This document shows positions 12,501 to 56,690 of a stretch of 64,000 nucleotides of DNA, one piece after another. Each line of letters opens with the position of its first letter. Position 1 is the stretch's first letter. The position numbers were made by a program, and so were the translations under genes. The notes below the pieces were generated by a model, which was not told where the DNA came from, made no database searches, and worked only from the letters and a program-made list of their open reading frames with translations. Source of the DNA: Macrostomum lignano (lineage: Eukaryota). The stretch spans positions 62,001 to 126,000 of the forward strand of contig NIVC01000594.1 in NCBI GenBank assembly GCA_002269645.1. The letters run 5' to 3'.

Positions 12501-14223
12501 CTCGTTGTCGTTCCAGTAGGCTGGGAAGCCGGCCACGTACAGCTTGCCTGCCAGTGCGTTTGGGTGTGATATGGACAGGTGCACTTGGGACAGATGAGGT
12601 GTCCGCAGACTCAGCACTCACTGGGTGAGCAGAGGGGGAACTGAGCGAATGACTAGAAATGGAGGCCCTCTGTGACTGACTAGAGATGGAGGCCCTCTGT
12701 GACTGACTAGAGATGGAGGCCCTCTGTGACTGACTAGAGATGGAGCCCTCTGTGACTGACTAGAGATGGAGCCCTCTGTGACTGACTAGAGATGGAGCCC
12801 TCTGTGACTGACTAGAGATGGAGCCCTCTGTGACTGACTAGAGATGGAGCCCTCTGTGACTGACTAGAGATGGAGCCCTCTGTGACTGACTAGAGATGGA
12901 GCCCTCTGTGACTGACTAGAGATGGAGGCCCTCTGCGAATGACTAGAGATGGAGGCTGACTAGAGATGGAGGCTGACTAGAGATGGAGGCTGACTAGAGA
13001 TGGAGTCTGACTAGAGATGGAGTCTGACTAGAGATGGAGTCTGACTAGAGATGGAGTCTGACTAGAGATGGAGGCTGACTAGAGATGGAGGCTGACTAGA
13101 GATGGAGGCCTCTGTGACTGACTAGAGATGGAGGCCCTCTGTGACTGACTAGAGATGGAGGCTGACTAGAGATGGAGGCCCTCTGCGAATGACTAGAGAT
13201 GGAGGTTGACTCGAGATGGAGCCCTCTGTGACTGACTAGAGATGGAGCCCTCTGTGACTGACTAGAGATGGAGGCTGACTAGAGATGGAGCCCTCTGTGA
13301 CTGACTAGAGATGGAGCCCTCTGTGACTGACTAGAGATGGAGCCCTCTGTGACTGACTAGAGATGGAGCCCTCTGTGACTGACTAGAGATGGAGGCTGAC
13401 TAGAGATGGAGGCCCTCTGCGAATGACTAGAGATGGAGGTTGACTCGAGATGGAGGCTCTCTGTGACTGACTAGAGATGGAGGCTGACTAGAGATGGAGA
13501 CTGACTAGAGATGGAGCCCTCTGTGACTGACTAGAGATGGAGGCTGACTAGAGATGGAGGCTGACTAGAGATGGAGGCTGATTAGAGATGGAGGCTGACT
13601 AGAGATGGAGGCTGACTAGAGATGGAGACTGACTAGAGATGGAGACTGACTAGAGATGGAGACTGACTAGAGATGGAGACTGACTAGAGATGGAGACTGA
13701 CTAGAGATGGAGACTGAATAGAGATGGAGGCTCTCCGTGAATGCCAGCGATTGATGGCAATCACAAAATCATGACAATCCGGAATTGCGACTGTAGGTAA
13801 ATAAAAGACATCAGACAAACCCGTGTGGCCCAGCTCCTGCTGTGGTATGGCGATGCCAACCCGAATGCATTTGTCCTGAATTAGGCGACCGTTCAACACT
13901 TCGACCGCGCGCTCAGCGTCGTTAGGCGACTCGTAGGAGACGAAGCCGAAGCATTTCGACTCCTTAGTGATTCGATCTCGAACAACAATAGAGTTAGTAG
14001 TTGGCCCAACAGATTCGAATAGTTTCTTAAGCTCGTTATTGCCTATACTGGAGGGCAGGTAGTTGACTATCACTGTGCTTCCAGGCTGACTGCTGCTGGA
14101 TGACGCTCCGTCACCGCTGCCACCACCACTGTTGGCTAGTGATGCGACAGCGCCATTGTTGCCACTGGCCCCAGCAGCTGAGAGGCCGGAGCTGCAGTCC
14201 TGAGCCAGAGCGTCGGACAACTC
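9534..14223 (-). CDS. elav: ELAV/Hu-family RNA-binding protein with five RRMs; exons 14223-13821, 12547-11945, 11055-10616, 10360-10155, 9615-9534; start-codon exon not located
   Basis: All five exons have GT-AG ends with consistent phases. RNP motifs: VIVNYLP...CFGFVSY; LYVAGFP...CSGFVNF; LMVNFLP...CFGFVTY; LYIGNLP...GCGFIEL; LFVYGL...LWELFGPHGAVKSVKVIRD...GYGFVTM...VNGHLLGEKRLQVRFK. The last matches the ELAV RRM3 pattern. Confidence 0.9.
9625..10080. repeat. Intronic 21-bp minisatellite (gagtgggttggggagatttct)n
   Basis: About 21 copies filling the last intron of the ELAV-like gene. Confidence 0.95.
10357..10530. repeat. Intronic ~24-bp repeat overlapping a splice acceptor
   Basis: About 7 copies of ggactgaatgacccgggatttgat. 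The terminal copy supplies the AG acceptor of exon 10360-10155. Confidence 0.85.
11205..11835. repeat. Intronic 22/23-bp minisatellite (ccccataagctactaaata)n
   Basis: About 27 copies between ELAV-like exons. Confidence 0.95.
12650..13735. repeat. Intronic compound minisatellite (gactgactagagatggagccctctgt and short gactagagatggaggct units)
   Basis: Mixed 26-27 bp and 17 bp units sharing the core gactagagatggag. Confidence 0.95.
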
Positions 14224-19100: not shown

Positions 19101-21084
19101 TAAATTTTTCAACCCATTTTTTCTCTACCTCCCAGATCCAGTTCGAGTCCGAGTAGAGCTTCAGTAACAGAGCAGAAAAAATATAGTCCATACAGTCGTA
19201 ACAACTGCATCGTTTTTTGAGCTTCAAATACGCATCGATGCCTGCCTTGTGTTGTTTGTTTATGCCACCGTCTCCCGCTTTTTATATCGATAGTCGCCGC
19301 CCGTGCCAGTAAGTCAACTGGGTGCATAAGTGGCATTCAATTGTTACTTCAGAATCTCTTCTTGTCACACTGGTTGCAGAGAGGGTCCATGAGATTTGCC
19401 CGCAGACGAATAAAATGCAGCCAAGAAGAACACCTGTGGTGCCACATATTAATGTGACGTTAATGAGTGACGAGTCCTATACTCGATATAAAACAGCATC
19501 AGCTGAGGGGTGTGGGCACCTTGGCGCAACGCCTTTGGCGACATCATCACACAACCAGAGCTGACGGCAATTCTACCTATTCGGCTGACTCCTGAGAACA
19601 TACAAGAGCGCCAGTAGTGTACCGCAGGCACGCACTCGTGTGCACGCTCACACAGGGTGTACAGCGGGCATGTACACTCTATTCGCCTTGAGGGTTGGCC
19701 CCATAGTCTATGGATCTTATTAATGTATCAAACCGGAATCAAATCGAGGGCTCGTATAGCGCGAGAGGTTACCGATGAGCAGCTCCTTCCCCGAGTCCTC
19801 CCCCAAGGAATGGTCTGACAAATCTACCACCGAATTCAGCTTGGAAGCACTACACAAATCAGCTGAATGGCAGCTGCACGAACAGCCCTGGCATTTGTCC
19901 TATGACCTTTAGATAGGCGAATTTCTGGATCTGAAACGGCGCGCAACCCGGGACAGTGCAATTGGGGGCTTTCGCCTCCACGGAGAGCGGTTGGGGTGAA
20001 CAGGGGAGTCGGTCTCCATTAGTCGGTAAGTCGAGATCTCAGGTTTAAGACCGCCTGGCCTATTCCGGGAGTGTCGTCTGCACATTGTCAAGGACCACTG
20101 TAGTATAACAGGACATAAAACAGGACATGAACAATGACTGCATTTTATCTGAGACAGTGAAGATTACCGTTTTTTCATTTACAATTTTATTGAATATATA
20201 GCTGTGGTTGTAGTGAAAGTTTCATTTTCATATTCTTTTCTTTTTATTTCATAAGCCTAAAGTTCTAAATACTCACAAGTGGCATTAGCTTGACTTATAT
20301 TTTATTTCTTGTTGCATGCAGGTACTCTAAGCTATTATTGTAGGTAAAATTCCACTTCTAGTATTAGTTCCTGCATATACATACATAAACAGTTTAAACA
20401 GTTAGTGCATACAACTTGGGCACATGAAATAAAAAGAGAATAATATGAAAAAGAGACTTTCACTACACGGCTGCATAAAATCCAACAGATTAACATGCTG
20501 TGCATGGTAAATTAAAAGAATGACAATTTTCACTGCCCCGATGAAAAATGATATTGTTATATCCACAGTGCGATTTTTCCAGGAAATAGGCCTCCAAAAA
20601 TCACACAATCATTAAGTTTTACGTGCTGTTATACTACAGCGGTCCTTGCACTTTGTCCGGGGCGCTCCCATGCGGGGCCCTGGGAAAAAGGCTGGCTCCA
20701 TACCCCAAGCAGGAACAAATCCTGTACTTACTCCTGTAGCGCGCCTTAGAGTGCACGAATGGGAGGCAAGAGAAGGCGAATCCCTCTCAGCATCGGGAAA
20801 GGAAGGAAGGAGTCCCTGAGCGGAGGGCAGGAAAATTTCACCAATTGCCGCCCCGGCCTAAGAGTGAGAGACGATTAATAGTCAGCCAATGGACTGCAGA
20901 AGCCGAGTGCTTAAGGGGAAAGGGGGATGCGGCACTCTGGGGGGGGGAACCTGCTAAGCGGGAGAACATTTAGGGATAAAAATGGACTGGGGCACGCACT
21001 GGCAAGCACAGCACTGGCCTGGGGAGTTGGAGAATTACTGCGGCCGACTGTCAAACTACATGCGTTTCAGACTAAGCAAAGAGG

Positions 21085-22839
21085 ATGATGCTGTACGAAG
21101 AGCTGCTGTCCAGCATCTCCAAGTCGGGGCCCTGCTACCGTTGGGGCATCACCCTGATGATCTCCTTCCTGTCCATGAAGGCGGCTTTCGACATGTTTCT
21201 GCTCAACCTGTCCACAGCGCAGGTGCCGTTTCACTGCGCCGAGGCCCTGCTGGACAATGGCAGCGAGGCTGCCCCGGTGCTGCCCTGGAGTTCAATACTG
21301 TCAAACTACAGCCTGGCGTCCCCGGTGAACATCACGGACTTCCAATGCAGCCGACCGCGCCTCGTTGCCAGTCCAGATGGCTCGCTCAGATTGGCTACGG
21401 GGGGACACGGATCTAACGAGACTAATCCCGACCGGTGCGAGTCCTGGACCTTCCTAGTGCCGGGCCGGAGCATTCTCAGCGAGTACCAGCTGGTGTGCGA
21501 CCGGCAGTACCTTAACGACCGGATGCAGACGGTGCTGCAGCTGGGCATCTGCTTGGCCACGCTGCTCGGCCCGCTGGGTGACGCGGTGGGCCGGAAGCCG
21601 GTGCTGCTGGCCCTCTGCTACCTGAACCTGGCCAGCAGCATGGCTGCCGTCTTCGTGACCGACCTGACCTGGCAGATGGTGCTGCGCTTCTTCATGGGCT
21701 GCGGCGACCCGGCCCAGCTGATGGGCCTCATGCTCATCACGGAGATCGTGTCGCAGGAGTACCGCAGCCAGCACGGCAATCTGTTCTGGATCACATGGAC
21801 CCTGGCCTACATGGGCTCGGCAGGGGTGGCCTACCTGCTGACCGACTGGCGACTCCAGCTGGCCGTGGTGGTCGGCGTCACCGGGCTGAGCTATGCCGCC
21901 TATGCTCCGCTGCTGCCGGAGTCGCCGCGCTGGCTGCTGACCCGGCGCAAGACTCAGCGAGCCAGACGCGTCCTGCGCCAAATCTGCCAGCTGAGCGGCT
22001 GCGAGGACGCGCTGAGCCGGTTCAGCTTCGAGAACAACGAGCTGGTGTGCGGCGGCGGCTCGGGCCACTCGGAGCCCGGACTGTGCAGGTGCATCCCCAG
22101 GGCCAACATCTGCCGGCCAGTTTACCTGGTCACGCTGGCTGTGGTGACGTTGAGCTTTTTCACATCGAACCTGGTCTATCACGCGCTCTGCTTCCAGCGC
22201 GACTTAATCGCCAGCGACCCGTACGTGAATGTGGCCATTGCCGGGGCGCTGGAGCTGCCAGCCCACGTGGTCGCCTGGCCGCTTATTAACCGGCTGGGCA
22301 GGCGGGGGACAACAGTAGGCAGCATGTGCCTGACAGGTGTAGCTCTGGTTGCTATGCCGTTGCTACCCAGCATGCCTGGAGCGACCCAGGTGCAGAGCTG
22401 CCTGGCTGTGGCGGCCAAGTTCAGCAGCACAGTTACCTACAGCGTGCTGAACGTCTACGGCGCCGAGGTGCTGCCAACGAAGGTGCGCAGCTGCTCGCTG
22501 TTCTTGGCCTACAGCATCATGACGGTTGGCCAGTTCCTCGCTCCGGAGCTCGGCGGCGTCCTGGCCGCGCGGCACCCGGCGTTGCCCGGCCTGCTGTACG
22601 GTGGCTCTACGGCGCTGGTCGGCCTGCTGGTGCTGCTGCTGCCGGAGACGCGAGGCCGCGCCATGCCGAACTCGGTGCGCCAGATGCGCCCGCTGAGCCA
22701 CTGCTGCAGCGGCAGCCAGCCCGACTTGAAGGCGGCCGACGCCGAGGAGGATAAAGGTGACAACGACGAGCTGGCGGCCGGAGTCGCGCTGAAAGACGAC
22801 GAATCAGCGCGGCGAGACAGTCAGGAACAGCCGGTATAA
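21085..22839 (+). CDS. SLC22/organic cation transporter-like MFS protein (584 aa, single exon)
   Basis: Multiple hydrophobic segments and a large N-terminal loop with Cys and N-glycosylation sequons. Motifs EYQLVCDR, DAVGRKP, EIVSQEYR, LPESPRWL, LGRR, EVLPTKVR and LPETRG. Confidence 0.92.
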   Translation: MMLYEELLSSISKSGPCYRWGITLMISFLSMKAAFDMFLLNLSTAQVPFHCAEALLDNGSEAAPVLPWSSILSNYSLASPVNITDFQCSRPRLVASPDGSLRLATGGHGSNETNPDRCESWTFLVPGRSILSEYQLVCDRQYLNDRMQTVLQLGICLATLLGPLGDAVGRKPVLLALCYLNLASSMAAVFVTDLTWQMVLRFFMGCGDPAQLMGLMLITEIVSQEYRSQHGNLFWITWTLAYMGSAGVAYLLTDWRLQLAVVVGVTGLSYAAYAPLLPESPRWLLTRRKTQRARRVLRQICQLSGCEDALSRFSFENNELVCGGGSGHSEPGLCRCIPRANICRPVYLVTLAVVTLSFFTSNLVYHALCFQRDLIASDPYVNVAIAGALELPAHVVAWPLINRLGRRGTTVGSMCLTGVALVAMPLLPSMPGATQVQSCLAVAAKFSSTVTYSVLNVYGAEVLPTKVRSCSLFLAYSIMTVGQFLAPELGGVLAARHPALPGLLYGGSTALVGLLVLLLPETRGRAMPNSVRQMRPLSHCCSGSQPDLKAADAEEDKGDNDELAAGVALKDDESARRDSQEQPV

Positions 22840-43499: not shown

Positions 43500-44025
43500 G
43501 AAAACGAGATAGTTGCGTACGAAAAGATCGATCAAGTATATAGTGCAGCTACTGGCTGGCGCACCGTCGCTCCTGGAAATCCATTTCCAATATACTAAAA
43601 ATTTTTTCCTAACAACTCTGCGCGTTGGTGAGGCAACGAGCCCAGCGGCGCTAAAGGGGAGAACTGCATTTGTGTTGCAAATAAGCCCACAGCACCGCTT
43701 GCGGACATGACCTGCAAATGAACTACGGCTGTGTGCGAATACGTGGGAATTAACTGTTCAGCCCGCTTCAAACACCTGGTGGCAGCAAGTGGACTTCGAC
43801 TGGCAGACCTGGCAGACTTAAAACTGTGTCTACTGCCAGACTGAAGTGACCGCGGCACCGGTTCTCCACTGCATGAGGGAGCTAGGCCACTCGGCTGGCT
43901 ACCAGCGTGAAGTCGCTTAATTTGTACAACAGCCGGTTGAGACGGTGCGTGCTGCTAAAGTACATCGATGCTCAGGTGGAGCTGTCCGTGGAGAATAGCA
44001 CGAAGTTCGCCCTGCATGCGTGGAG
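43500..44025 (+). pseudogene. Possible pogo/Tigger-like DDE transposase relic that received the Polinton insertion
   Basis: LKLCLLP...VKSLNLYNSRLRRCVLLKYID...KFALHAW continues after the element as RAVADPCNTF* (54231 onward) when the TSD is collapsed. This resembles the AWxxV..TIxNCF end of DDE_1 transposases. Confidence 0.35.
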
Positions 44026-44596
44026 ACTACATAACGCGTAGATTCTGCAGGGTTTTGGAGGTGAGGTGGGTGTCAGAGCCAATGCAAATTCAACGCCTAT
44101 CTAAATACATTAGACCGATTCTAATTGGTCCAGAGTCATTATGTGAGACATTTATGCTCTCATGTAAAATCTATACATGTAATCAGTGTACACTGTATCG
44201 TACAGCAGCGACGAGTACAATATAGTACGCATAATTAGCGCATCGCAGTTGTTGTACGCAGAAGCGCGCGCGCGCCCCCATCCCCACACAATGCAGCATT
44301 GGTGTACGCAGAATTAACTGTCCATATTAACTGTCCATATACCCAAAATTGGCAGAATTAGAGCGCCTACCCACCCCATAACTGTCCATATTATTACTTG
44401 TCCATATTTACTGTCCATCCCAAAATTGGTGTACGCGCAGAATTGTAGCGTCCGCCCACCCCATAGCTGTTTATATACCAAACTTCGTGTACGCACAGAA
44501 TTGTAGCGCCCACCCATCCAAGAAAATATTCTTTGACCCCCACAATTAATTGGTGGCCCCGCGCGGAGGCATGATGAGTCAGCCGCTGTAAATCGC
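44026..44596 (+). repeat. Left terminal inverted repeat (~570 bp)
   Basis: Reverse complement of 53657-54224 with scattered mismatches and indels; contains internal aactgtccatat and cagaattgtagcgccc repeats. Confidence 0.95.
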
Positions 44597-45212
44597 CGCT
44601 ATCCACCCCTCTGCCCTGCGCTGGCCGCTATAGCTACCAGCAGCAGTGTTACGCAACAACCCGGTCGAGCCACAATGCTAACTTTATAGCCAGACACGTC
44701 ATCAAGGTCTGAAAACACAAACTTCTATGCATGAAATATTCTCGTTTAACAAGATGCCAAACCAATTTTGTTCAGACAGCAAACTATAAATAAGAAAATT
44801 TGGATTCTCGGCCGTTTATCTAAATTCACCAAGTTCAATTAACATCCCAATCGTGTGGAAAACGCAGTGTTTGACAAGCAATTTTTGGTGCCAAAGCACA
44901 AGAGGATCAGACCTCCAAAGCATGAACTGCCAACAACTTGGAGCAAGGATTTCAACACACCTCCAACGCCAGCACCGAAAATAGGTACAAAAGGCTCATT
45001 TTTTCTGGAATCCTCGATAACGACAACACCGTGAAAAGCTCGTTAACATGTAATTAAAACAAAAACTTATTGAGACTCTCGGGTATATAAGCACCAACCC
45101 GGGGCACCAAGCACCCGTACCTGTAAATTTTTCTCGGATTCTCGGCAGTTTTTCAAGCTCAAATAACATTCCCACCACTAGTGCGAACAACGTAGCAAGT
45201 GCTTGACAAGAA

Positions 45213-45752
45213 ATGAGCTGGATTTCCAGAGACTACCCCCTATTATCGAACGAGGAAAAAGACGAATATGAGGCCTTGAAAAAATCTGCTGACTGGTTGT
45301 GCATTTGCCACAGCAAACCGATTTCCGAGCGATTTATAGTCACCTTCAATGCCAAGGTCGAGGAAATTGATCAAGGCCCCTACGACAGCCAAGACTACGC
45401 AGCAGCCAGGATAAATGAGCAACTACGGGACAAAATGAGATTCAAAGCTGATTTAGCACGAATGGAGAGATTACTGGCTCCGATACTAAGTGAAGAGCAT
45501 CGCCAAAAAATACGTTTTCGGAACCATCAAGATCTGTATAATCCGTCGTGGGAGGAGCAACAAAAGATTTGGAATTTTTGGCTGCCAAAGCACAAGAGGA
45601 ACAGGCCGCCAAAGCTTGAACTACCAGCAACTTGGAGCAAGGATTTCAGCACACCTCCAACGCCAGCACCCGAAAATAGGAACAAAAGGTTCATTTTTTC
45701 CGGAATCCTCGATAACGACAACTCTGTAAAAAGCTCGTTATCGTGTAATTAA
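45213..45752 (+). CDS. Polinton hypothetical protein (179 aa)
   Basis: ATG-initiated ORF downstream of a GGGTATATAAGC box; no family recognised. Confidence 0.6.
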   Translation: MSWISRDYPLLSNEEKDEYEALKKSADWLCICHSKPISERFIVTFNAKVEEIDQGPYDSQDYAAARINEQLRDKMRFKADLARMERLLAPILSEEHRQKIRFRNHQDLYNPSWEEQQKIWNFWLPKHKRNRPPKLELPATWSKDFSTPPTPAPENRNKRFIFSGILDNDNSVKSSLSCN

Positions 45753-45847
45753 AACAAAAACTTATTGAGACTCTCGGGTATATAAGCACCAGCCCGGAGC
45801 ATCTGCAAGCGCCCGTACCTGCAAATTTTTCTAAACAGACAAGAGAC

Positions 45848-46390
45848 ATGGAGACAGTGCAAGACTTCAACTGCGTCAAGCGAGAGCTGCTGGCACTCAA
45901 ACCGCGAGGTCCGAGCTTCAACGGGGTTGAAACGTTTGACATTGAATATGACGAACAGGGACCTCTCTACTTGGCCAATGCGGTCCCTGTTTTGATCGTC
46001 AAGGGCGTGCGTACTGACAACGAAGGTCGCGAATTCATCATCATTGCACAAAAACACATTGAAAGCTGCATACCCTACACTTTCAACACTGTGGCGGAGC
46101 ACCTTTCCAGCGAAAGTCTAGCTCTGCTGGGCTACAACCCAGCGTTTGGAGGTGACAGTGCAGCGTTTGGGCTGGCTCACGACTTTAAAATGTACGACCA
46201 AAACGGACTGCCTGTAGAGGATTACAAAAACAAGAGCGGCTACTACAGGATTCTGTTTACTCTCGACACGGCCGTGATTCGAGACGCTGTTTTGACCGCA
46301 ATGCCAAAAATTCAACAGCTACAGTTTGTCGAAGAAGCCAAACAGGCATTCGATCGTTGCTTTGGACGCCACCTCCAAAAATCAAGGTAG
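45848..46390 (+). CDS. Candidate OB-fold ssDNA-binding protein (180 aa)
   Basis: Beta-rich pattern FDIEY...LYL...VLIVKGV...FKMYDQNG...YYRILFTL...PKIQQLQFVE is reminiscent of T7 gp2.5-like viral SSBs. This is pattern recognition only. Confidence 0.45.
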   Translation: METVQDFNCVKRELLALKPRGPSFNGVETFDIEYDEQGPLYLANAVPVLIVKGVRTDNEGREFIIIAQKHIESCIPYTFNTVAEHLSSESLALLGYNPAFGGDSAAFGLAHDFKMYDQNGLPVEDYKNKSGYYRILFTLDTAVIRDAVLTAMPKIQQLQFVEEAKQAFDRCFGRHLQKSR

Positions 46391-46599
46391 GCGTCAAGAA
46401 AGTAAGCAAGAAAGCAAAGAAACCACCAAAGCTTGTCAAGGAGAAGCAGCCAAAGGTGCCTAAAAATCAGGCCAGAAAGCGACAGCATCAATCGAAACTA
46501 GTAGCAGCCAACGAATCAAAGAAGCGGTCGAAAGCCCCCAAGAAGGATACGAAAGTAAAAACTGCCGAAAAATCTACTTGCAGAACGTCGAGTGTGTGA
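46357..46599 (+). CDS. Lysine-rich segment, probably a frameshifted part of a neighbouring ORF
   Basis: KKVSKKAKKPPKLVKEKQPK... has no in-frame ATG and overlaps both adjacent ORFs in the -1 frame. Confidence 0.4.
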   Translation: MLWTPPPKIKVGVKKVSKKAKKPPKLVKEKQPKVPKNQARKRQHQSKLVAANESKKRSKAPKKDTKVKTAEKSTCRTSSV

Positions 46600-47057
46600 A
46601 CCGAGTGTTTTGCGCGAAATGGAGCCGCATGCCTGACTTGGACTGGGCGAGCGCACGGACATTTCGCAGACCAAGAGCTCTTATCAATTTGCGAATAGGA
46701 AAATGTACAATCAACTTTTTTCAGCGTTCTTTGTCTGCAATTGTATTCGGTTGTCGCTCAGTCAACCAAGTTTTGCGTCTTTTTCCTCAATGTAAACCAA
46801 TTTCTGTTGTTGTTACCACTAGTACTTACCGCGCTGAAGTAGACAGATGGCCAAACTTTTTCCAAATTGCATACTCCGGGTCCCACTGGGTGAAGTGGGA
46901 GTGTGAAGTTTTCAATGGAATAGTAATAAAGTCTCCATTTCGCAATGCTAAATGTTTATTATGCGGAAAGAATGGCCGCCTTGTTTTCCTTGGAATACGA
47001 AACTTTAAAGAGCTCTGTCAAATGTACGATCATGTGACTAGCGTTTTGCATGTCTAA
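46578..47057 (+). CDS. Divergent TATA-binding-protein-like domain (159 aa)
   Basis: LQNV aligns to TBP LQNI. [16 protein letters not shown]...[11 protein letters not shown] aligns to [43 protein letters not shown]...GRLVFLG...[13 protein letters not shown] aligns to ELFPGLIYR...GKVVLTG...EIYEAFENIYPIL. Confidence 0.7.
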   Translation: [159 protein letters not shown]

Positions 47058-47197
47058 TCCATGTAGCTGTTGCGTAACTTTACTGCTTTACCACTGTACC
47101 GAATTTGTATGTACGTACAAGCTGCTATGAAATTGTCTATAAATATATTGTGCATAAATTGCAGTGCACTGCAACCAACATCTTTTTGCTAAACAAA

Positions 47198-47554
47198 ATG
47201 ACAAACGGAATCTCCAGACTATGTTCTTGTCGCGGCGAGCTCGCAGAGCTCGCCAAAGCCCGTCCCACTCTTCGGCGGGCCATTATTCGAGGTGCAGGCA
47301 AGGAACTGATTCATTGTCTCTGTGAATTGAGTCACAACGTGCTCCGGGGAAATATCGATCTTTCTCCGAAACAGTATCTGCGATTAAAGCGATACAGAAG
47401 ATCGTTGCGTGAATTGGCAGACACAAAATTGTCTATAAATAGGAAGAAGAATATGCTTCTCTCGAATCCTCAAGTCGGTGGCTTTCTACCCATCCTTGCA
47501 TCTGTTGCTGCACCGCTAATATCAAGCCTGTTTGGCGGACTACTTGGTCGCTAA
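47198..47554 (+). CDS. Conserved Polinton/adintovirus virion protein with C-terminal GG|FL amphipathic peptide (adenovirus pX-like end)
   Basis: KELIHCLCELSHNVLRGNIDL...QVGG-FLPILASVAAPLISSLFGGLLGR. The ATG at 47198 is 60 nt after a TATAAAT. Confidence 0.75.
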   Translation: MTNGISRLCSCRGELAELAKARPTLRRAIIRGAGKELIHCLCELSHNVLRGNIDLSPKQYLRLKRYRRSLRELADTKLSINRKKNMLLSNPQVGGFLPILASVAAPLISSLFGGLLGR

Positions 47555-47555
47555 A

Positions 47556-48205
47556 ATGAATAAATACGTTGTTGTACCAGAAGAAGAATTTAATAGACTA
47601 AGTCAAGGCGCACCCCGAGAAATTGCATCCAAAACAGAATATGAAAAACTCATTGAATACAACACTCAACTCCAAAATAAACTAAGTCAGATCAAGCAAA
47701 AGAAGAGTAATCGTTTTCCTGAACGACAACAACGTGTTTGGGACATGCTGACAGAAAGATACCCAAATTTGGAGTACAACAAGTCGTGGGAAATTGTATT
47801 TGATGGAAAAACCTGGCCAGGAAGCAATATTTTCGATCTATTGAAGGAGATTACATCGAATGAAAGGCGCGACCGCCCAAGCCCAAATATAGTACCGCTT
47901 TTTGGGCCCTGGCCGAAGAGGCAGATATTGCAAAAGCTCTACTAGGACGACGCCAACAAGAAGAAGTCAGTGTGAAAAAAGAAGTCGGCACGGATCCGGA
48001 TCGAGACGATTTTTTAGTCGAGCAAGCAATTGGAACTAATGATTTCTACAACGACTTCCACAAAGACCAAGCCAGTGGCCTGAATGAAATTAAAAAATAT
48101 GAAGATCGTGGCAGCAATGCCTACAGGCATGCTTCATACCAACTTCGCGAACCAAAGAGGCGGCAGAAACCAGCAGTAAAATACGAGACGTTAAAAAAAC
48201 TATAA
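47556..48205 (+). CDS. Conserved Polinton hypothetical protein, split by one frameshift near 47900
   Basis: MNKYVVVPEEEF...WEIVFDGKTWPGSNIFDLL. The -1 frame continues ALAEEADIAKALLG into ORF 47972-48205. Confidence 0.65.
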
Positions 48206-48245
48206 ATAGAAATCATTTTCATGATTTATAATCTGTTTTTGGATC

Positions 48246-48512
48246 ATGGGTGCCGCAGCTGTAACTTCAAAGCTTTGCTCAGACAAACCGTCTGTGGAGT
48301 TCAAGTGTAATTACTCATGCTGTGCATCGAATCTAGTTGCGAATGAGGGTGAAAACCGCTCTTCGGAGAGTGTACGAACAGGGGGACGCCGCTTTTACAA
48401 ATGCTGCCCGTGTATATCAGGAGGCCAAACGGCTGGTCCCCTCCCTGACGAGACGCCAAACAGACGAATGGCTGAAGACCCAATCGAGCTACACCCGGCA
48501 CAAGAGGGTTAA
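48246..48512 (+). CDS. Small Cys-rich ORF beginning MG, overlapping the integrase 5' end
   Basis: MGAAAVTSKLC...FKCNYSCC. The ATG is 45 nt after a TATAAAT. Confidence 0.4.
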   Translation: MGAAAVTSKLCSDKPSVEFKCNYSCCASNLVANEGENRSSESVRTGGRRFYKCCPCISGGQTAGPLPDETPNRRMAEDPIELHPAQEG

Positions 48513-49410
48513 AAGAAAATTCCGAACCGGAAAAGTAATGTCGGGAGGCTTCATGGAAACTGTGCAAGCGGATTTGATGGACATGTCGCGATACGAACAA
48601 TGGAATGATGGTCATCGATATATTCTAGTTGCAATTGACGTGCTTAGTAAATTGGCTTTTTGTCAGTCAATAAAATTGAAAAGCGACACTCCAAAGGCTT
48701 TTGAAAGCATGATCAAAGACTTCCCCATTAAGCCTTTATATCTACACGTTGATCGAGGTACCGAGTTTTATAACAATCGCATGCAGAACTTACTGAAAGC
48801 CCATAATATCAAAATGTACAGTACAAACTCTGTATACAAGGCAAATATGGCTGAAAGGCTGATTAGGACTCTCCGAAAACGTTTAGCTCGCTACTTTGAG
48901 CATAAAAACACGTGGCGTTGGATCGACTATTTGCCAATATTGGTTAAAAGTTACAACAACACAGTACACTCTACTATTGATATGAAACCTTCGAGTGTCG
49001 GTCTGCACAATCAAAAAGAATTGTGGGAAAAGCTCTACAAGGATCCTGAATATGATGAACCAGTTTACCAAAAAGGGGACTTTGTCAGAATTTCAAAATC
49101 TCGTCGAGCCTTTGACAAGGAAGCATACGATATGTACAGCGAAGAAGTTTACGTTGTGTCTCAAGTATGCCCGGGACCGCCTCATTTTTATCGCATTTCC
49201 GACCTATCTGGAGAACAAATCGAGGGTCGATTCTACTATAATGAACTTTCAAAGACGGTTCGACCGGACCGCTTTGTTATAGACAAAATTCTGCGTCGCA
49301 ATGTCATCATCAATGGTGTCGCTCATCATTTCGTTAGTTGGCGCGGCTATCCCGAGTCGTTCAATGCATTTGTACCAGTTGAGGAAGTTATAAATATAAG
49401 ACAAGGATGA
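48337..49410 (+). CDS. Retroviral-type DDE integrase with C-terminal chromodomain
   Basis: Catalytic QADLMD, LHVDRGTEF and MAERLIRTL; YNNTVHSTIDMKP; chromodomain FVIDKILRR...HFVSWRGYPESFNAFVP. Confidence 0.95.
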   Translation: MRMRVKTALRRVYEQGDAAFTNAARVYQEAKRLVPSLTRRQTDEWLKTQSSYTRHKRVKRKFRTGKVMSGGFMETVQADLMDMSRYEQWNDGHRYILVAIDVLSKLAFCQSIKLKSDTPKAFESMIKDFPIKPLYLHVDRGTEFYNNRMQNLLKAHNIKMYSTNSVYKANMAERLIRTLRKRLARYFEHKNTWRWIDYLPILVKSYNNTVHSTIDMKPSSVGLHNQKELWEKLYKDPEYDEPVYQKGDFVRISKSRRAFDKEAYDMYSEEVYVVSQVCPGPPHFYRISDLSGEQIEGRFYYNELSKTVRPDRFVIDKILRRNVIINGVAHHFVSWRGYPESFNAFVPVEEVINIRQG

Positions 49411-49444
49411 ACACACATACACTCGAAACGTGTAGTATATTACA

Positions 49445-50598
49445 ATGCATCTATTCCTACCTAGCAATGCGTGCGTTGAGCACTATCCTGAGAATAATTC
49501 GGCACATTATAGCATTAATTTGCCCGACACCCTCCACTTTCCGAATCATGAAGTCTGCATCGAACGGATCTACTTTTGTAAAGAATTCAAAACCGTCCCC
49601 GATAATCGAATGGTTGATGTCCTGACCAACGCTCCGAGGATGAAGTGATTGACATTGAGGTGAGAGAAAAACCCGCCTCCACGTATAAACAGTTTGCGTC
49701 GGTTTCTCTCGCCGCGGGGCTATCAACAGCCAACGAAGTGGTTGATGCAATCATCGCCGATCTAAAATATGAGCAAGACGATAATGCGATGATTTGCATT
49801 GAGCGTTCACAGGAAGGCCAAATTTCAATTGTGAACAAATCATGGTATGGTGCGAACATTAGGCTGTCCAGTAATGTGCGTAGCATGTTTAAAAAGGTTG
49901 ATGACGCTGGAAATAAATCAAATATCGAAGTAACGACTTTTTTATTAAACCCAAGAAATTCGTTAGTATTCGCTATAGAATTGGAGTCCTCCTCCTCCAT
50001 AGAGAGTCCGATGACTCTAACGTTTGAAAAGAGTGTCTGGCCTTCTAGAACGTCACTGCGGATTGCTAAAGGATTCTACCGCACGCCTGACGAGCTCTTA
50101 AATTATGTTAATGGAGCGCTTTGGGGCGTCGTTTCAAAGCTCCCAATAAGTCCAGCGACGAGAGTGGATGCATTCCGCTACAACCCTTTTCTGAACCGGT
50201 GTGAGTACAAACCCATTGAAAACATTTTATTCGACATTGGAGAGCTTGCTGCCATTCTCGGCTTTCGCGAAGATGTTTTCAATGAAACTCCAAAGACCGC
50301 TAAACGACCAATCGATTTAACAAATGGTGTACAAACTATGTACATCTATTCAAATATTGTCGACTCTGCCATTGTTGGAGACGTCAAAGTCCCCCTGCTT
50401 GGGGCAATTCCTTTGAATGAAAAGGTATACGGCGAACGAGAGTACTACGAGTTTGTCAATCCATCCTACTTACCGTTGGTGAAACACCCATTCAAAACCA
50501 TTGAGGTGCAAATCTGTGACGATATGGGCAAGTTAATGGATCGGATTCTTCGAGGCAAAACTGTTTTATCGATCAACATTCGTGAAATTAAGCTATAA
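49445..50598 (+). CDS. Minor capsid (penton-like) protein, frameshifted near 49630
   Basis: N-terminus MHLFLPSN...YPENN...INLP...HEVCIERI (ORF 49445-49648). C-terminus MYIYSNIV...VGDVKVPLL...YLPL...IEVQICDDMG...GKTVLSINIR (ORF 49645-50598). Confidence 0.85.
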
Positions 50599-50642
50599 AT
50601 AAAGAAGTTTTCACGAATAAAAGGTAGCAACTGATCGACAAT

Positions 50643-51011
50643 ATGCCTTCAATCTTGATCGGAGGAGCTTTACCGGTATTTTCCGGTGCACAGCGCGGCA
50701 ACGGCCTGTTTGGCAGCATTGCCCGATTTGCCCTGCCAATTTTAAAGAGTTTTGGCAAAAATATTCTTCGCCACGGAACACGAGCCCTAGCTACAACAGT
50801 TAGCGACACACTCGATCAAGGCGGGAACTTGAAAGAAGCGGCATTGCGTAACTCTGTCCAGGCAGCTAAAGATGCTTTCAAGGACACAGTCGCACAACGA
50901 GGTAGCGGCAGACAAAGACGAAGAAAGATGACTAACAAAAAAACGAGAAAAAGACTGCAGCATTCTGATATTTTCGACTCTATAAATAAAAAAACCCGTG
51001 CCAATAACTGA
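50643..51011 (+). CDS. Basic core-type Polinton protein with QRGxG motifs
   Basis: LIGG, QRGNGLFG...PILK, QRGSG followed by an Arg/Lys run and DIF, as in conserved Polinton small basic proteins. Confidence 0.75.
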   Translation: MPSILIGGALPVFSGAQRGNGLFGSIARFALPILKSFGKNILRHGTRALATTVSDTLDQGGNLKEAALRNSVQAAKDAFKDTVAQRGSGRQRRRKMTNKKTRKRLQHSDIFDSINKKTRANN

Positions 51012-51054
51012 TCTGTCTATTAGAGCACCACACTAAGCCGCTGTTGAATGAAAA

Positions 51055-52336
51055 ATGACTGAGTGCCTGTGTACAAAGTCGGAATTCGAGCTTTTTGCTC
51101 CTCGCGCACACCAAATTGCTGCAATTAGCGCCACCACTGAAGAAGTTCACCCTGTTGCCAGTGTTGAAAATGCCAGCGTGGTCGAATTTAGGATTGTTGG
51201 TGGTGAGACGTTTATCGATCTTAACGACATTGACCTCGAGATTAAGGCCCGCGTTAAGCAGTCTAATGGTACAAATCTTGCTGCTGATTCGAATGTTGCG
51301 CCGGTCAATTACGTCCTTGAAAGCATGTTTAAAAACGTCACGTTGACAATCAACGGGACACACGTAGAGTCGAGCAATAACAACCACGCTTACAAGGCCT
51401 ATATTCTCACGTGTTTGAATTACGGACACGATTCAAAAACTAATCAACTGAGAATGATGGGCTACGCAAAGGACGCTGGAGGTCAAATGGCTGTGGTTGG
51501 AAATCCTGGCTTTGTAGCCCGCAAGGCGATGGCGGCAAACTCACGCACCTTTCACCTTTATGGACCTCTTAGTTTAGACTTTTTTGTTACCAACGACCGA
51601 ATGCTACTGCCATACACTGATATGGTAATTACGCTGACCATGCACAATTCCGGCTTCGTTCTGGAAAACCACGCGGACGGGGTTGATGCGCGGCTAGTAC
51701 TCGAGAGTGCCAAACTACATGTGCGCCGCGTCAAGGCAAACCCCCAATTGGCATTGGAGATTGAAGAACAACTAGGCAAACAGAATGCAATCTATCCGAT
51801 TGAGCGACTTGTTGTGCACAATACTTCAGTGGCTGGCGGTGTTCGGGACATGTCAATCAATAATATATTTCCTGAACAAAAGCCTAAACTAGTGGTTGTT
51901 GGCATGGTGAACAGCGGCGCATACAACGGTGTGGCTACACATAACCCGTTTAATTTTGAACCGTTTGGGGCAGACAGTGTCGCTCTGTATAAGGACGGAG
52001 TCAGTCTGTGTGGACAACCGTTTACTCCTCGATTCGGTGTTCATAACTATGCTCGCGAGTATGCCATGCTACTAAAAAGCCTAGGAAAGATGAATCGGGA
52101 CCTGATATTGACGTATCATATTCCGACTATGGAGCTGGCTACTGCTTCTTCGCCTGGAATCTCATGCCCGACATGGAGCTGGGCGGGCATAGCATGCCTC
52201 GCGAGCGAGGGAATCTGACGCTACAAATAAAGTTTTCTGCTGCCTTGGCCGCAGGAATCAACGTGTTGGTGTTTGGCTACTTTGACAATACTGTGCAATC
52301 ACTCGCGGTCGTCAGGTTATTCTAGACTACGTGTAG
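51055..52336 (+). CDS. Double jelly-roll major capsid protein, frameshifted near 52097 and 52297
   Basis: KSEFELF, VEFRI...FIDL, APVNYVLESMF, YKAY...LNY, NGVATHNPFNF. The -1 frames give YSDYGAGYCFFAWNL...GNLTLQIKFS...LVFGYFDN and ITRGRQVILDYV*. Confidence 0.9.
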
Positions 52337-52386
52337 AAACAAACATCTCTTTTTTATTCTCGAATAACGACCATATTCATGCCGAT

Positions 52387-52836
52387 ATGAATAGTCTAGA
52401 TATATTAGAACGTCTAATACTACCTGTCCCTGTTCGAGTAACACCAGTTGACAGGATTCCGCAGCCTGTTTATCCTGCTGCATACGTGATTAACTTTGAC
52501 ACTGGCAATCTACCAGGCACTCACTGGGCTTTAATTTGTCTTCATGCCGATGAGAGCGTGACATTTTTTGACCCCTTGTGTATCGATCCTGTGCCAGATT
52601 TATTAAAGTTGTGGATCACAAAGTATGTCCCTGTGGAGGTGGCCATGAACCGGCATCCTGTACAGCATCAGCTAAGTGTGACCTGCGGGGCTCATGTAAT
52701 ATTTGTGGCTGAAAAACACTTTCTGGAGGGTCTGTCAATTGAAAAAATATTGCGCGACTGTTATAGCACAAATCTTTACGAGAACGACTTGATGGTGCAG
52801 AATCACTGTCTACAAATAAAGCAGCATCATCCATAA
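52387..52836 (+). CDS. Adenain-like cysteine protease
   Basis: VINFD...GTHW (His), FFDP (Asp), VQ (oxyanion Gln) and TCGAH (Cys). Confidence 0.9.
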   Translation: MNSLDILERLILPVPVRVTPVDRIPQPVYPAAYVINFDTGNLPGTHWALICLHADESVTFFDPLCIDPVPDLLKLWITKYVPVEVAMNRHPVQHQLSVTCGAHVIFVAEKHFLEGLSIEKILRDCYSTNLYENDLMVQNHCLQIKQHHP

Positions 52837-52838
52837 AT

Positions 52839-53489
52839 ATGATTGGGCTGCCTATCAAAATGTATCAAACAATAGACCCCGACTCTTTAAAATTTGCCCC
52901 CAAAACGTCGGCAATTTTTGCTGGGGTGGCTCAAAGCGGCAAGACCACACTTGTGAAAAACCTATTGAGACAAGAATTTTTTCAAGATCCGAAGCCGATT
53001 CGCGTAGACTGGTTTGGCCACTATCCGGATCCTGAACTGTTTGAATTGCCGTACCCTGTAAATTTTCGTTCGTGTACATTTGATCCTGAACAATATGTCC
53101 CTGAACCAAATATTCTGCTTGTCGTCGACGACCAAATGCATGCCATGGAAAAGAGTGGCGCTTTTACAACTTTTTTCACGCGCAAAGTCTCCCACGTGGG
53201 GTTCCGACTTTGGTATCTTGTGCAAAACCTGTTTGCAAAGGGTAAGGAGCACCGAACTCAGTCGCTCAATTCGAACTACCTTGTTTTATTCCGCAATGTT
53301 CGGGATGCCAGCACAGTGTCTCATATTGCAAGGCAGCTGGTCCCCACTAATCCAAAAAGTTTTGTCAAAACGTATGAGGATGCTACTCGCGACCCCTACT
53401 CATACTTGATTGTAAACTGTTTGCAAAATGCTCCTGCTCGCTATTATTCAAATGTTTTGGGTCGTCACCCAATTGTGTATGCTAAATAA
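52839..53489 (+). CDS. A32/FtsK-like genome-packaging ATPase
   Basis: Walker A GVAQSGKTT, Walker B LLVVDD, then FT..VSH, QNLF.K...RTQSLN..YLVLF.N.RD. Confidence 0.95.
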   Translation: MIGLPIKMYQTIDPDSLKFAPKTSAIFAGVAQSGKTTLVKNLLRQEFFQDPKPIRVDWFGHYPDPELFELPYPVNFRSCTFDPEQYVPEPNILLVVDDQMHAMEKSGAFTTFFTRKVSHVGFRLWYLVQNLFAKGKEHRTQSLNSNYLVLFRNVRDASTVSHIARQLVPTNPKSFVKTYEDATRDPYSYLIVNCLQNAPARYYSNVLGRHPIVYAK

Positions 53490-53656
53490 ATATACGTATC
53501 AAAGCTCGGCCGGCTTTTTGTGTAAATATATATACGCCTTTTGAAAACTTATTTGGGAGAGGGGGTTGGTGGATGACGTAATTGTCTCGGAGTGTCGACG
53601 AGGGCTGAATTCTAGAGAGTGAAGTATGGAAGGAGTGGATATAACAGGCTGCAGCA

Positions 53657-54224
53657 GCGATTTACAGCGGCTGACTCATCATGCCTCCGCGTGGGACCGC
53701 CAATTTTGTGGGGGTCACAGACAATTCTGTGCGTACACCAATTTTGGGTGTATATATGGACAGTAAATATGGACAAGTAATAATATGGACAGTTATGGGG
53801 TGGGCGGGCGCTACAATTCTGCGCGTACACCAATTTTGGGATGGACAGTAAATATGGAAAAGTAATAATATGGACAGTTATGGGGTGGGTGGGCGCTCTA
53901 ATTCTGCCAATATTTGGTATATGGACAGTTAATATGGACAGTTAATTCTGCGTACACCAATGCTGCATTGTGTGGGGATGGGGGCGCGCGCGTTTCTACG
54001 TACAACAACGGTGAAGCGCTAATTATGCGTACTATATTGTACTCGTCGCTGCTGTACGATACACTGATTACATGTATAGATTTTACATGAGAGTATAAAT
54101 GTCTCACATAATGACTCTGGACCAATTAGAATCGGTCTAATGTATTTAGATAGGCGTTGAATTTGCTTTGGCTCTGACACCCACCTCACCTCCAAAACCC
54201 TGCAGAATCTACGCGTTATGTAGT
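53657..54224 (-). repeat. Right terminal inverted repeat (~570 bp)
   Basis: Inverse of 44026-44596. Confidence 0.95.
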
Positions 54225-54719
54225 GTGGAGGGCTGTAGCTGATCCCTGCAACACATTTTGAGAAGCTTTTATTTAAAAAAACGTCTTCTCGAACATACCT
54301 CAGCTGTTTCCCGTGATTATTCTTCGTTCTAACTGCAATTATCAATATATATATTTCCCCATTAATTTTTTTCCTCAGACCTGCCTCTATAAAGTTAATC
54401 TTAGTGTAGTTCTATCTATGCTACTTTTTGTCGAAAAGCAAAAAATGCCGCACCTATACAACAGTTGGTAATGAACCCATGCGCTCGAATAAAGAATGAT
54501 ACATGATTGTTCAAATCTACTCAAATCTAAGTTCATAATTCTATCAGTTTTTTCCTAAATTTTGTAGCGGATATACGAACATGCTTACTGAACACAGCAG
54601 TTCTCTTGTTTTTGTTTCTCATTCGAATAAATTTAAAAATTTTGAGCCGATTGGCGTTTCAAAGCAACAAGAATTGTTAAGCTCTGTGCGTTATTTTGTC
54701 TAGCATCAGTCTTGTGCTC

Positions 54720-56067: not shown

Positions 56068-56690
56068 GAAAAGCTTTCCAAGGACTACTTAACAACACAG
56101 GAAGTTACACTTGCGAATATTGGCAGAATTCTAAAAGGCCGCTTTGTGTCTTGACAATATTTTGATCGAGTCGGAATCTGTCCCAACTGGGCCGAGACCA
56201 CTCATGTGCCGTTTGAGAGTCGAGGCTCCGCTTGCTTCATTCTAGCATCCTCCGGCCAATGCTTGCGGCATACGCCCATGTGCGCAGTGAAATGCTACCT
56301 TACCTTTGCTGCGATGGGCAAAGCCTTCATTCAGGAGTCAACCTTATCCTCTTCTTTCACAAAAGTAATACACGGTGCACCTTTCACCGCTTTTGTAGTG
56401 CTGATGCAGTCTGGAGTCTGCAACATTTCGTCGGCATCTTGTATAACTCAATTGAATTTGAAGCAAGAAATAAAAAAGATTCCGAGAACGCACAGTTAGC
56501 TGTTTGCTCTTGTCTACTTGGTGCTCTAAGCTAGACTTTATACAGGCTATCATGCTGCACTGCTATGCGAATTACTAAGCAAAAAGGCCCCTAAAACCAT
56601 AGACACACATTCAAAGCGGCCTTTTAGAATTCTTCCAATATTTGCAAGTGTAAGGTCCTGTGTTTTTAAGTAGTCCTTGAAGCTTTCTAG
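56068..56690. mobile_element. Putative MITE or foldback with ~85-bp inverted ends
   Basis: aagctttccaaggactacttaa...aattctaaaaggccgctttg (~56068-56150) is inverted at ~56612-56690. No TSD resolved. Confidence 0.6.

Follow-up and report, generated by a model that had tools for sequence, protein, structure and literature searches.

Polintons are defined by a polymerase and an integrase on one element. Search pipelines use the same definition as a filter, so that split forms would escape detection or be classed as decayed copies. Derivatives of Polintons that are non-autonomous, like defective interfering genomes, are mobilised in trans via common ends. One account gives Polintons a length of 13–25 kb and describes Vsr-like inserts for pPolB2 (10.1101/2023.08.22.554363). 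Bombyx mori bidensovirus (BmBDV) and Drosophila Vesanto virus are reported to be segmented, with a Polinton-derived protein-primed polymerase (pPolB), TIRs and matching termini (PMC4061559, PMC8502044, PMC8363768). Polinton-like viruses are characterised in one source as mostly devoid of an rve integrase and as carrying other replication proteins, a helicase or primase instead of pPolB (PMC11161782), while transpovirons, linear plasmids and plasmid-like pMVREs are presented as TIR-bounded polymerase elements without virion genes (PMC13215967). No segmented Polinton was found in the literature searched. Here, we analysed a window of 64,000 nucleotides from Macrostomum lignano (contig NIVC01000594.1, positions 62,001–126,000). 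We consider it quite probable that the element at 44026–54224 of this window belongs to a bipartite Polinton as its segment for capsid and integrase, and that each of the two segments inserts by itself and supplies in trans what the other lacks.

The element has the ends ACTAC…GTAGT. Both TIRs and the exact 6-bp TSD claimed in the preliminary description of this DNA were recovered, with GTGGAG on either flank (44020–44025 and 54225–54230). Repeat comparison within the window delimits a left TIR of ~575 bp (44026–44600, + strand); the right TIR (53653–54224, − strand) ends in 27 nt identical to the left end, and complementarity reaches 99% over the outer 165 bp. The terminal 31 nt (44026–44056, + strand; ACTAC-N22-TTTT) form a block that is common to the polymerase elements described below and that likely serves as replication origin and integrase site. 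Nucleotides 8–27 of this block are hypervariable from copy to copy; an origin of the variable block as a copy of the element interior was considered and rejected, the longest internal match being 8–11 nt. Repeat comparison also identified a partial direct duplicate (44882–45134, + strand) of 45576–45832, a source comprising the 3′ end of a 179-aa ORF and the intergenic stretch that follows.

The main genes of the element, and all ORFs given here, lie on the + strand. Within the gene set claimed earlier, the integrase, major capsid and packaging ATPase are confirmed, the protease is recognised by motifs and resident homologues, and the penton by weak matches. The intact ORF at 48343–49410 encodes a retrovirus-like rve integrase (Pfam, E 2.5e-8) with a chromodomain-like C-terminal part, for which the match is weak (E 0.055). 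The predicted structure of the major capsid protein, which is of the double jelly-roll type (51055–52325; pLDDT 78.6), matches the major capsid proteins of virophages, NCLDV and adomaviruses, with 65 matches at E ≤ 0.001; the capsid profile gave no match among PDB sequences, and no relatives were found in the viral_contigs collection. The packaging ATPase (52839–53489) is of Polinton type, with visible Walker A and B motifs and 30–39% identity to resident Polinton ATPases. The gene at 52387–52836 likely encodes an adenain-type cysteine protease: its His, Asp and Cys motifs are invariant in 7/7 aligned homologues and resident Polinton genes match at E ~1e-6 to 1e-7, with no match in Pfam or PDB searches or with a profile against PDB sequences. 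Gene position and weak tblastn matches to resident Polintons (E 1.6e-6 to 6e-4) suggest that 49445–50598 is likely the penton (minor capsid) gene, and a 122-aa basic amphipathic ORF (50643–51011; 86% identity in the sister family B) is likely a virion core or membrane-active protein.

The remaining ORFs are less readily assigned. The 179-aa ORF (45213–45752) is kept in family B and matches no family. The 180-aa ORF (45848–46390; 74% identity in family B) occurs in the A/B lineage only and may be SSB-like, by resemblance of a motif; a PDB search gave no match, and a fold predicted without an alignment reached a pLDDT of only 35.5. The element may encode a TBP-like protein in the frame at 46578–47057 (77% identity in family B), a weak lead: the NCBIfam TBP match has an E of 0.025, with 1.3e-4 for the B homologue, and two of just three PDB matches (E 1.2–1.5) are named TBP/TFIID. 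A 118-aa basic ORF with an amphipathic C-terminus (47198–47554) is kept in B, and a broken ORF (47556–48205) weakly matches one resident Polinton gene. The label "complete-looking" does not fit the window copy. Its penton-like gene is split into two frames (49445–49648 and 49618–50598), its major capsid frame stops early at 52218 with the C-terminal part in another frame (52047–52322), and two smaller ORFs do not reach the length they have elsewhere in the family; the broken ORF has 129 aa versus 216 aa in most copies, and the 180-aa ORF has 236–250 aa in most others. "Capsid-competent" thus describes the family but not this copy, whose frames are broken.

The reported absence of pPolB and helicase was upheld. 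In the window copy, two of three polymerase profiles gave best i-E values of 16–19 and the third had no match listed; Pfam detected no helicase apart from weak AAA-type matches on the ATPase. No pPolB trace, including degraded motifs, was present in 44600–48300, and related copies likewise lack the gene (no tblastn match at E ≤ 1 in any of nine A capsid copies; pPolB is also absent from the fetched B loci). Unrelated Polinton families in the same genome also include polymerase-deleted copies, so polymerase loss alone is not unusual here.

Eight of 12 fetched TIR pairs were collinear with the window element at 96.8–98.8% identity, and perfect TSDs flank 13/16 A capsid copies with both ends. The sister family B, which had been considered as a polymerase-bearing parent and was rejected, has the same layout; all nine fetched B loci were collinear and without pPolB. 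The A and B proteins (MCP, ATPase, integrase and protease) are 81–88% identical. The four-fold-site p-distances in the two modules, 381/612 (0.62) and 251/377 (0.67), are weak evidence that A and B diverged about equally in the capsid and polymerase modules, because these sites are near saturation. The earlier suggestion of a true polymerase-less lineage is supported by the number of distinct insertion sites and by a sister family that keeps the layout at near-saturated synonymous divergence.

Separate TIR-bounded elements of 8.8–9.8 kb with an intron-split pPolB occur at many other places in the genome. They made up 4/14 of a first sample of pPolB loci, with ACTAC ends and no capsid-module match. 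Among 24 elements with polymerase-type ends, 17 of which carry pPolB, no integrase, capsid, ATPase or protease was detected (tblastn E ≤ 0.01; best HMM i-E 1.4–16), and the capsid-module queries matched 4/4 canonical Polintons as a control. Though without an integrase, all 12 pPolB elements for which both ends were obtained are flanked by a 6-bp TSD; only two A-type elements with both ends were recovered. Exonuclease and polymerase motifs are visible in the partner pPolB; Polinton pPolB characteristically also has terminal-protein and OTU domains at its N-terminus. In the A polymerase gene, three GT-AG introns are missing from contigs of RNA-like runs, for two of these introns in a pair of runs each, and no skipping was seen in a presumed DNA run, a control covering only 16/30 bins; the RNA or DNA nature of the runs was guessed. 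For the capsid segment, no RNA run was listed among those on record. A Vsr-like insert in the polymerase, suggested by a motif, received no support from Pfam, NCBIfam or PDB. Resident canonical polymerases are distant from those of A and B (E ≥ 0.02), and metagenome loci resembling the polymerase show 25–39% identity on contigs of ≤6.5 kb. These data support the earlier term "helper-dependent". A host polymerase or a full-length Polinton does not seem to be the helper, however; that role appears to fall to a polymerase-only element with the same ends. "Satellite" understates the relationship: because this same-ended element itself lacks integrase and capsid, the dependence is likely mutual.

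The 31-nt terminal block, including its polymorphic haplotypes, is common to capsid and polymerase elements in two pairs, A–A and B–B. Between B capsid and verified B polymerase ends, 4/13 27-mers were exact (shuffle mean 0.002; 0/3000). For A, none of nine was exact and four lay at one mismatch, a count that leaves out non-coding elements (2/12 with them); the mean nearest end distance was 2.2 versus 3.9 after shuffling (0/3000). Cross-pair ends differ by 10–17. The pairing is not perfectly clean. Nucleotides 28–50 of the A capsid segment (44053–44075 in the window, + strand) match the same position in B-type, not A-type, polymerase elements, and two 9-mers at nt 19–27 are common to A and B, so that either polymerase may be the partner of the window element. 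A non-coding interior, 94–99% identical, is found with either A capsid or A polymerase ends; elements of 7.6–8.6 kb with A capsid ends were examined as polymerase carriers and rejected as non-coding. None of the 68 capsid-segment places has any of the 103 A/B polymerase places within 49 kb (both counts are lower bounds in an assembly fragmented into 5269 contigs). Complementary gene sets on unlinked segments with common ends, a mark of multipartite viruses, are present here.

Based on these findings, which come from integrated copies and assembled contigs, with complementation, free linear DNA and particles inferred, we propose a plausible cycle. The second segment, elsewhere in the genome, would supply the protein-primed polymerase and replicate both segments: the spliced enzyme would prime at the common end and copy any element bearing it. 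Displaced strands would fold into panhandles, evening out the two ends of one copy and letting end variants pass between segments. The integrase of the capsid segment would insert both segments, and its capsid would package molecules of ~7–10.5 kb. Two segment pairs, A and B, would coexist, and non-coding palindromic elements with A/B ends likely parasitise both. No monopartite ancestor of A/B was found, so fission of one virus and union of two defective ones are not separable. With guarded confidence, we also incline to the view that this is the first segmented double jelly-roll DNA virus, an actively transmitted bipartite Polintovirus whose segments integrate independently, whose 31-nt end acts as a recombining compatibility code and which supports its own defective-interfering satellites.

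It is unlikely that a full-length Polinton of ~19–20 kb, exogenous or missing from the assembly, supplies all functions and that the two classes are its defective derivatives. Such derivatives would also show common ends and a 6-bp TSD, the giant palindromic non-coding elements indicate that defective forms arise and spread, and fragmentation of the assembly makes the search counts lower bounds. However, no element among the 68 capsid and 103 polymerase places carries both modules, and A and B are split in the same way although their synonymous divergence is near saturation. Past the first 31–50 nt, the TIRs of one class bear no relation to those of the other, and each gene set shows conservation of its proteins. 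Two loci with a B polymerase beside a capsid module were rejected as a joined form, the polymerase element having inserted, with a TSD of its own, into an unrelated Polinton.

Quite unlikely, too, is an ordinary non-autonomous Polinton copied by a resident canonical polymerase, with the polymerase-only elements as a separate passenger. Resident Polintons of 16–17 kb with open pPolB frames do exist, other resident families have polymerase-deleted derivatives, and pPolB classes are described as swappable between Polintons with conserved ends (10.1101/2023.08.22.554363). Yet the canonical elements have AGTAGT ends and no similarity to the capsid element in the first kilobase, their capsid-module proteins are just 27–43% identical, and the pairwise polymorphic end haplotypes of pPolB-only and capsid elements would be left unexplained. 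We regard as very unlikely a one-way dependence in which the polymerase element replicates on its own as a linear replicon, with any resident integrase inserting it, and the capsid element is a satellite giving nothing essential, even though pPolB elements without structural genes are known and read as plasmids in one source (PMC13215967). The polymerase element does carry the whole replication enzyme, and the genome holds at least 150 integrase-like places. Retroviral-type integrases are, however, end-specific, and the perfect 6-bp TSDs of 12/12 polymerase elements accompany ends that match only capsid segments. A derivative of a single deletion, or replication by host polymerases alone, agrees with the several frame breaks of the window copy and the possible TBP-like protein but is largely refuted, and scarcely credible, given that dozens of similar copies share one layout across two families and that a matching polymerase element exists.

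The two-segment form, if true, would extend multipartite organisation to integrating double jelly-roll DNA viruses. It would also provide a stage on the way to bidnaviruses, to pPolB plasmids that have no capsid, and to the swapping of polymerases among Polintons. The hypervariable common 31-nt end points to the cis-sequence read by the Polinton polymerase and integrase, and makes the long-inferred model of Polinton replication testable in a laboratory flatworm.

The capsid element resembles Polintons/Mavericks (adintoviruses, Polintoviricetes) in its double jelly-roll capsid, its rve integrase with a chromodomain-like end, its likely protease, its packaging ATPase, its long TIRs and its 6-bp TSD, within the 5–8 bp of that class, and in pPolB too once the partner is included. 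It differs in having pPolB and integrase apart, on two unlinked elements of 9–10.5 kb each, with ACTAC rather than the AGTAGT ends of resident canonical Polintons and spliceosomal introns in pPolB. The closest analogue of a two-segment Polinton is the bidnaviruses, which, like Vesanto virus, have segments with TIRs and matching termini, one of them with pPolB. Those viruses have ssDNA, a parvovirus-type capsid, a superfamily 3 helicase and no integrase, and BmBDV combines PolB and major capsid on one segment, whereas here the capsid is double jelly-roll, no helicase was found and both segments integrate. Polinton-like viruses share the capsid module without pPolB and the dependence on another element; here, by contrast, an rve integrase is present, neither a replication enzyme nor a helicase was detected, and a 9-kb element, rather than a giant virus, is the partner. 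The palindromic non-coding elements fit non-autonomous derivatives or defective interfering genomes, but ordinary derivatives come from a complete parent; for A and B no such parent was found, and both coding classes are incomplete. Like the pPolB elements that lack a capsid, the polymerase elements described here are bounded by TIRs and have no virion genes; they differ in being inserted into the genome between 6-bp TSDs, in being spliced and in matching a capsid–integrase element by their ends.

The element spans window positions 44026..54224, beginning with ACTAC and ending with GTAGT. The preliminary description's terminal inverted repeats (TIRs) and exact 6-bp target-site duplication (TSD) were confirmed, with TIRs of ~575 bp and GTGGAG on each flank. 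Its claim that a protein-primed polymerase (pPolB) is missing also held, as neither tblastn nor three profiles across six frames detected a pPolB remnant in the element. The complete-looking set of virion and integration genes stood in part. The integrase matched the retrovirus-like core (rve; E 2.5e-8) and, weakly, a chromodomain; the capsid protein is predicted to adopt a double jelly roll fold (65 viral matches, E<=0.001); and the ATPase and protease are homologous to resident Polinton genes. The protease had no match in Pfam or PDB, and its motifs are unchanged across 7/7 aligned homologues. The penton identity of a further gene is weakly supported, and in this copy, which also has two shortened small ORFs, the penton-like and capsid genes are each broken across two frames. 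Such breaks vary between copies of the family (A), and the 9 copies tabulated include an intact version of every gene. Elsewhere in the window lie host genes for a two-RRM RNA-binding protein (11937-12617, - strand) and an MFS/sugar-type transporter (21076-22839, + strand), and a MITE-like pair of 68-bp inverted repeats spaced 465 bp apart (56079-56679).

A genome search with the left end gave 40 scored places out of 82 candidates. Eight of 12 fetched end pairs were collinear with the window element (96.8-98.8% identity), and four had the ends alone in common with it. Both ends were recovered at 16/18 A capsid loci, where the TSD was perfect in 13, had one mismatch in one, was absent from one and was replaced by mirror-image flanks in one; two of the 13 are likely one duplicated site because they have a flank in common. 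Mirror-image host flanks of at least 190 bp in place of a TSD (contigs G000 C996, C1588 and C356) represent either end conversion extending into the flank or an assembly artefact. Near-full matches to a lineage-specific ORF (26 at 95-100%, 22 at 73-75%) are not copy numbers. Sister family B, with an ATPase 86% identical to that of A, was collinear at 9/9 fetched loci of 10.3-10.6 kb, none with pPolB; a TSD was present at 9/9 loci with both ends, and an end was missing in 2/11. The window element thus belongs to a lineage, one of the two alternatives in the preliminary description, with polymerase-less copies in both families. In other public data there are, without context, capsid proteins that share 78-81% identity with A as well as B, and proteases at 66-71% identity. 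A TATA-binding-protein-like frame is conserved between the window (46578-47057, + strand) and the family B locus L022 (3137-3616), with no obvious ATG start in B. Family B also carries two additional 5' genes (L022 764-1931) not in A, one of which presumably has a Fic-like motif.

The missing polymerase was found in separate elements. PF03175 had 119 matches across the genome, and 14 loci were sampled. Several were canonical Polintons of 16-17 kb with AGTAGT ends, and four were ACTAC-ended elements of 8.8-9.8 kb without any capsid-module gene, one type having A-like and the other B-like ends. Among the 129 matches to a 200-residue polymerase probe, 27 near-full ones were of A type (91-100%) and 49 of B type (65-70%). 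Twenty further elements had polymerase-type ends; pPolB was present in 13 and not in 7, and the second end was absent from the fetched stretch in 6. None of these 24 elements matched the integrase, capsid, ATPase or protease queries, which did hit 4/4 canonical Polinton controls. Two-ended pPolB elements (2 A, 10 B) had perfect 6-bp TSDs in 12/12. Among 68 capsid places, none came closer than 49 kb to a polymerase place, of which there were 103. The polymerase has exonuclease and polymerase motifs and shows very little similarity to five resident polymerases (blastp E>=0.02); in the databases it came closest to Macrostomum lignano entries, which reached 92% identity against at most 34% for all others. 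Three GT-AG introns of its gene are skipped in contigs of presumed RNA runs, and for two of these introns skipping is seen in two separate runs; a presumed DNA run showed no intron-skipping joint over coverage limited to 16/30 bins. B polymerase elements (e.g. G000 C41) contain a 177-aa ORF, which we take from its motif to resemble PC4-type ssDNA-binding proteins. At two loci (G000 C4072 and C2932), a B-type polymerase element with its own TSD is nested in a polymerase-deleted Polinton of another family. A decayed pPolB ~31% identical to the A type (G000 C234:57207-58980), flanked on each side by ~18 kb devoid of capsid genes and paired TIRs, is possibly an older polymerase element.

All ACTAC classes open with ACTAC-N22-TTTT and diverge beyond it. 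Copies differ at 35-42% in positions 8-27 versus 0-8% in positions 28-67; in all of them, as at window 44026-44056, this hypervariable zone adjoins ~40 nearly invariant nucleotides. Three canonical resident ends likewise vary there, so hypervariability may be common to Polintons in general. The variation is mosaic, with linkage decaying within ~5 nt and all four combinations occurring at 65/91 (A) and 92/120 (B) site pairs, and the left and right ends are identical within 10/16 A and 6/9 B capsid copies. For B, 4/13 polymerase 27-mers exactly match a capsid 27-mer (0/3000 shuffles). For A, 0/9 match exactly and 4 lie at one mismatch, with a mean nearest distance of 2.2 versus 3.9 when shuffled (0/3000); cross-pairs differ at 10-17 sites. 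End haplotypes thus cross between capsid and polymerase segments. Counter to a clean pairing, nt 28-50 are common to A capsid and B polymerase elements, and two 9-mers at nt 19-27 are common to A and B.

Direct evidence that A capsid and A polymerase ends have been exchanged comes from non-coding, mostly palindromic elements of 6.6-9.4 kb, in which one interior carries either kind of end. These elements (L191-L195, L201, L209, L007-L009 and L014) have TSDs and include near-perfect full-length palindromes; they resemble copy-back defective genomes, and some may be assembly artefacts.

Between A and B, 381/612 four-fold sites of the capsid module differ, as do 251/377 of the polymerase module, values so near saturation that they date the divergence little. 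Together with retained protein identity (81-88% for capsid, ATPase, integrase and protease; 59-71% for polymerase frames), they suggest that the split layout is likely older than the A/B divergence and that both halves were kept under selection.

Complementary genes, common ends, independent insertion and splicing are observed, and we consider it probable that the window element is part of a two-segment integrating virus of Polinton type. Protein-primed replication is an established model, and on this basis the polymerase would prime at the common end and copy any element bearing it, displaced-strand panhandles would equalise the two ends of a copy, and end variants would spread among co-replicating molecules via short-patch exchange. 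Both segments would be inserted by the capsid segment's integrase, and its capsid would package molecules of ~7-10.5 kb. The arrangement may stem from the splitting of a single virus or from a merger of two that were defective.

Derivation of both classes from an unseen full-length virus is unlikely, as is an ordinary non-autonomous element served by canonical residents. Two AGTAGT-ended resident families retain the capsid module and integrase with pPolB deleted (G000 C424 and C753, 14.7 kb; C176, 10.95 kb), the first with ~30 identical ATPase matches. Since other resident families thus have polymerase-deleted copies too, the novelty of the two-segment arrangement is the reciprocal partner rather than loss of polymerase. 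A one-way satellite is very unlikely, and a one-off deletion is scarcely credible beside the collinear copies.

Titles and abstract openings yielded no segmented Polinton; such elements may have entries in repeat libraries such as Repbase or in papers behind subscription, among them the first accounts of Polintons. No paper was found that dealt jointly with polinton, terminal inverted repeats and a bipartite, segmented make-up; for Macrostomum, searches on polinton and on maverick yielded off-topic literature only. Comparison extended to the accessible portions of further reports (10.1101/2023.08.22.554363, PMC11071296, PMC11161782, PMC13215967, PMC6431247, 10.64898/2026.06.19.733378, 10.1101/2022.07.12.499685, 10.1101/2025.04.19.649669, PMC12220804, 10.1101/2023.10.16.562556). 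According to the portions available of PMC8502044, PMC4061559 and PMC8363768, bidnaviruses differ from these elements in having a parvovirus capsid and no integrase, but resemble them in combining matching segment termini with a Polinton-derived polymerase.
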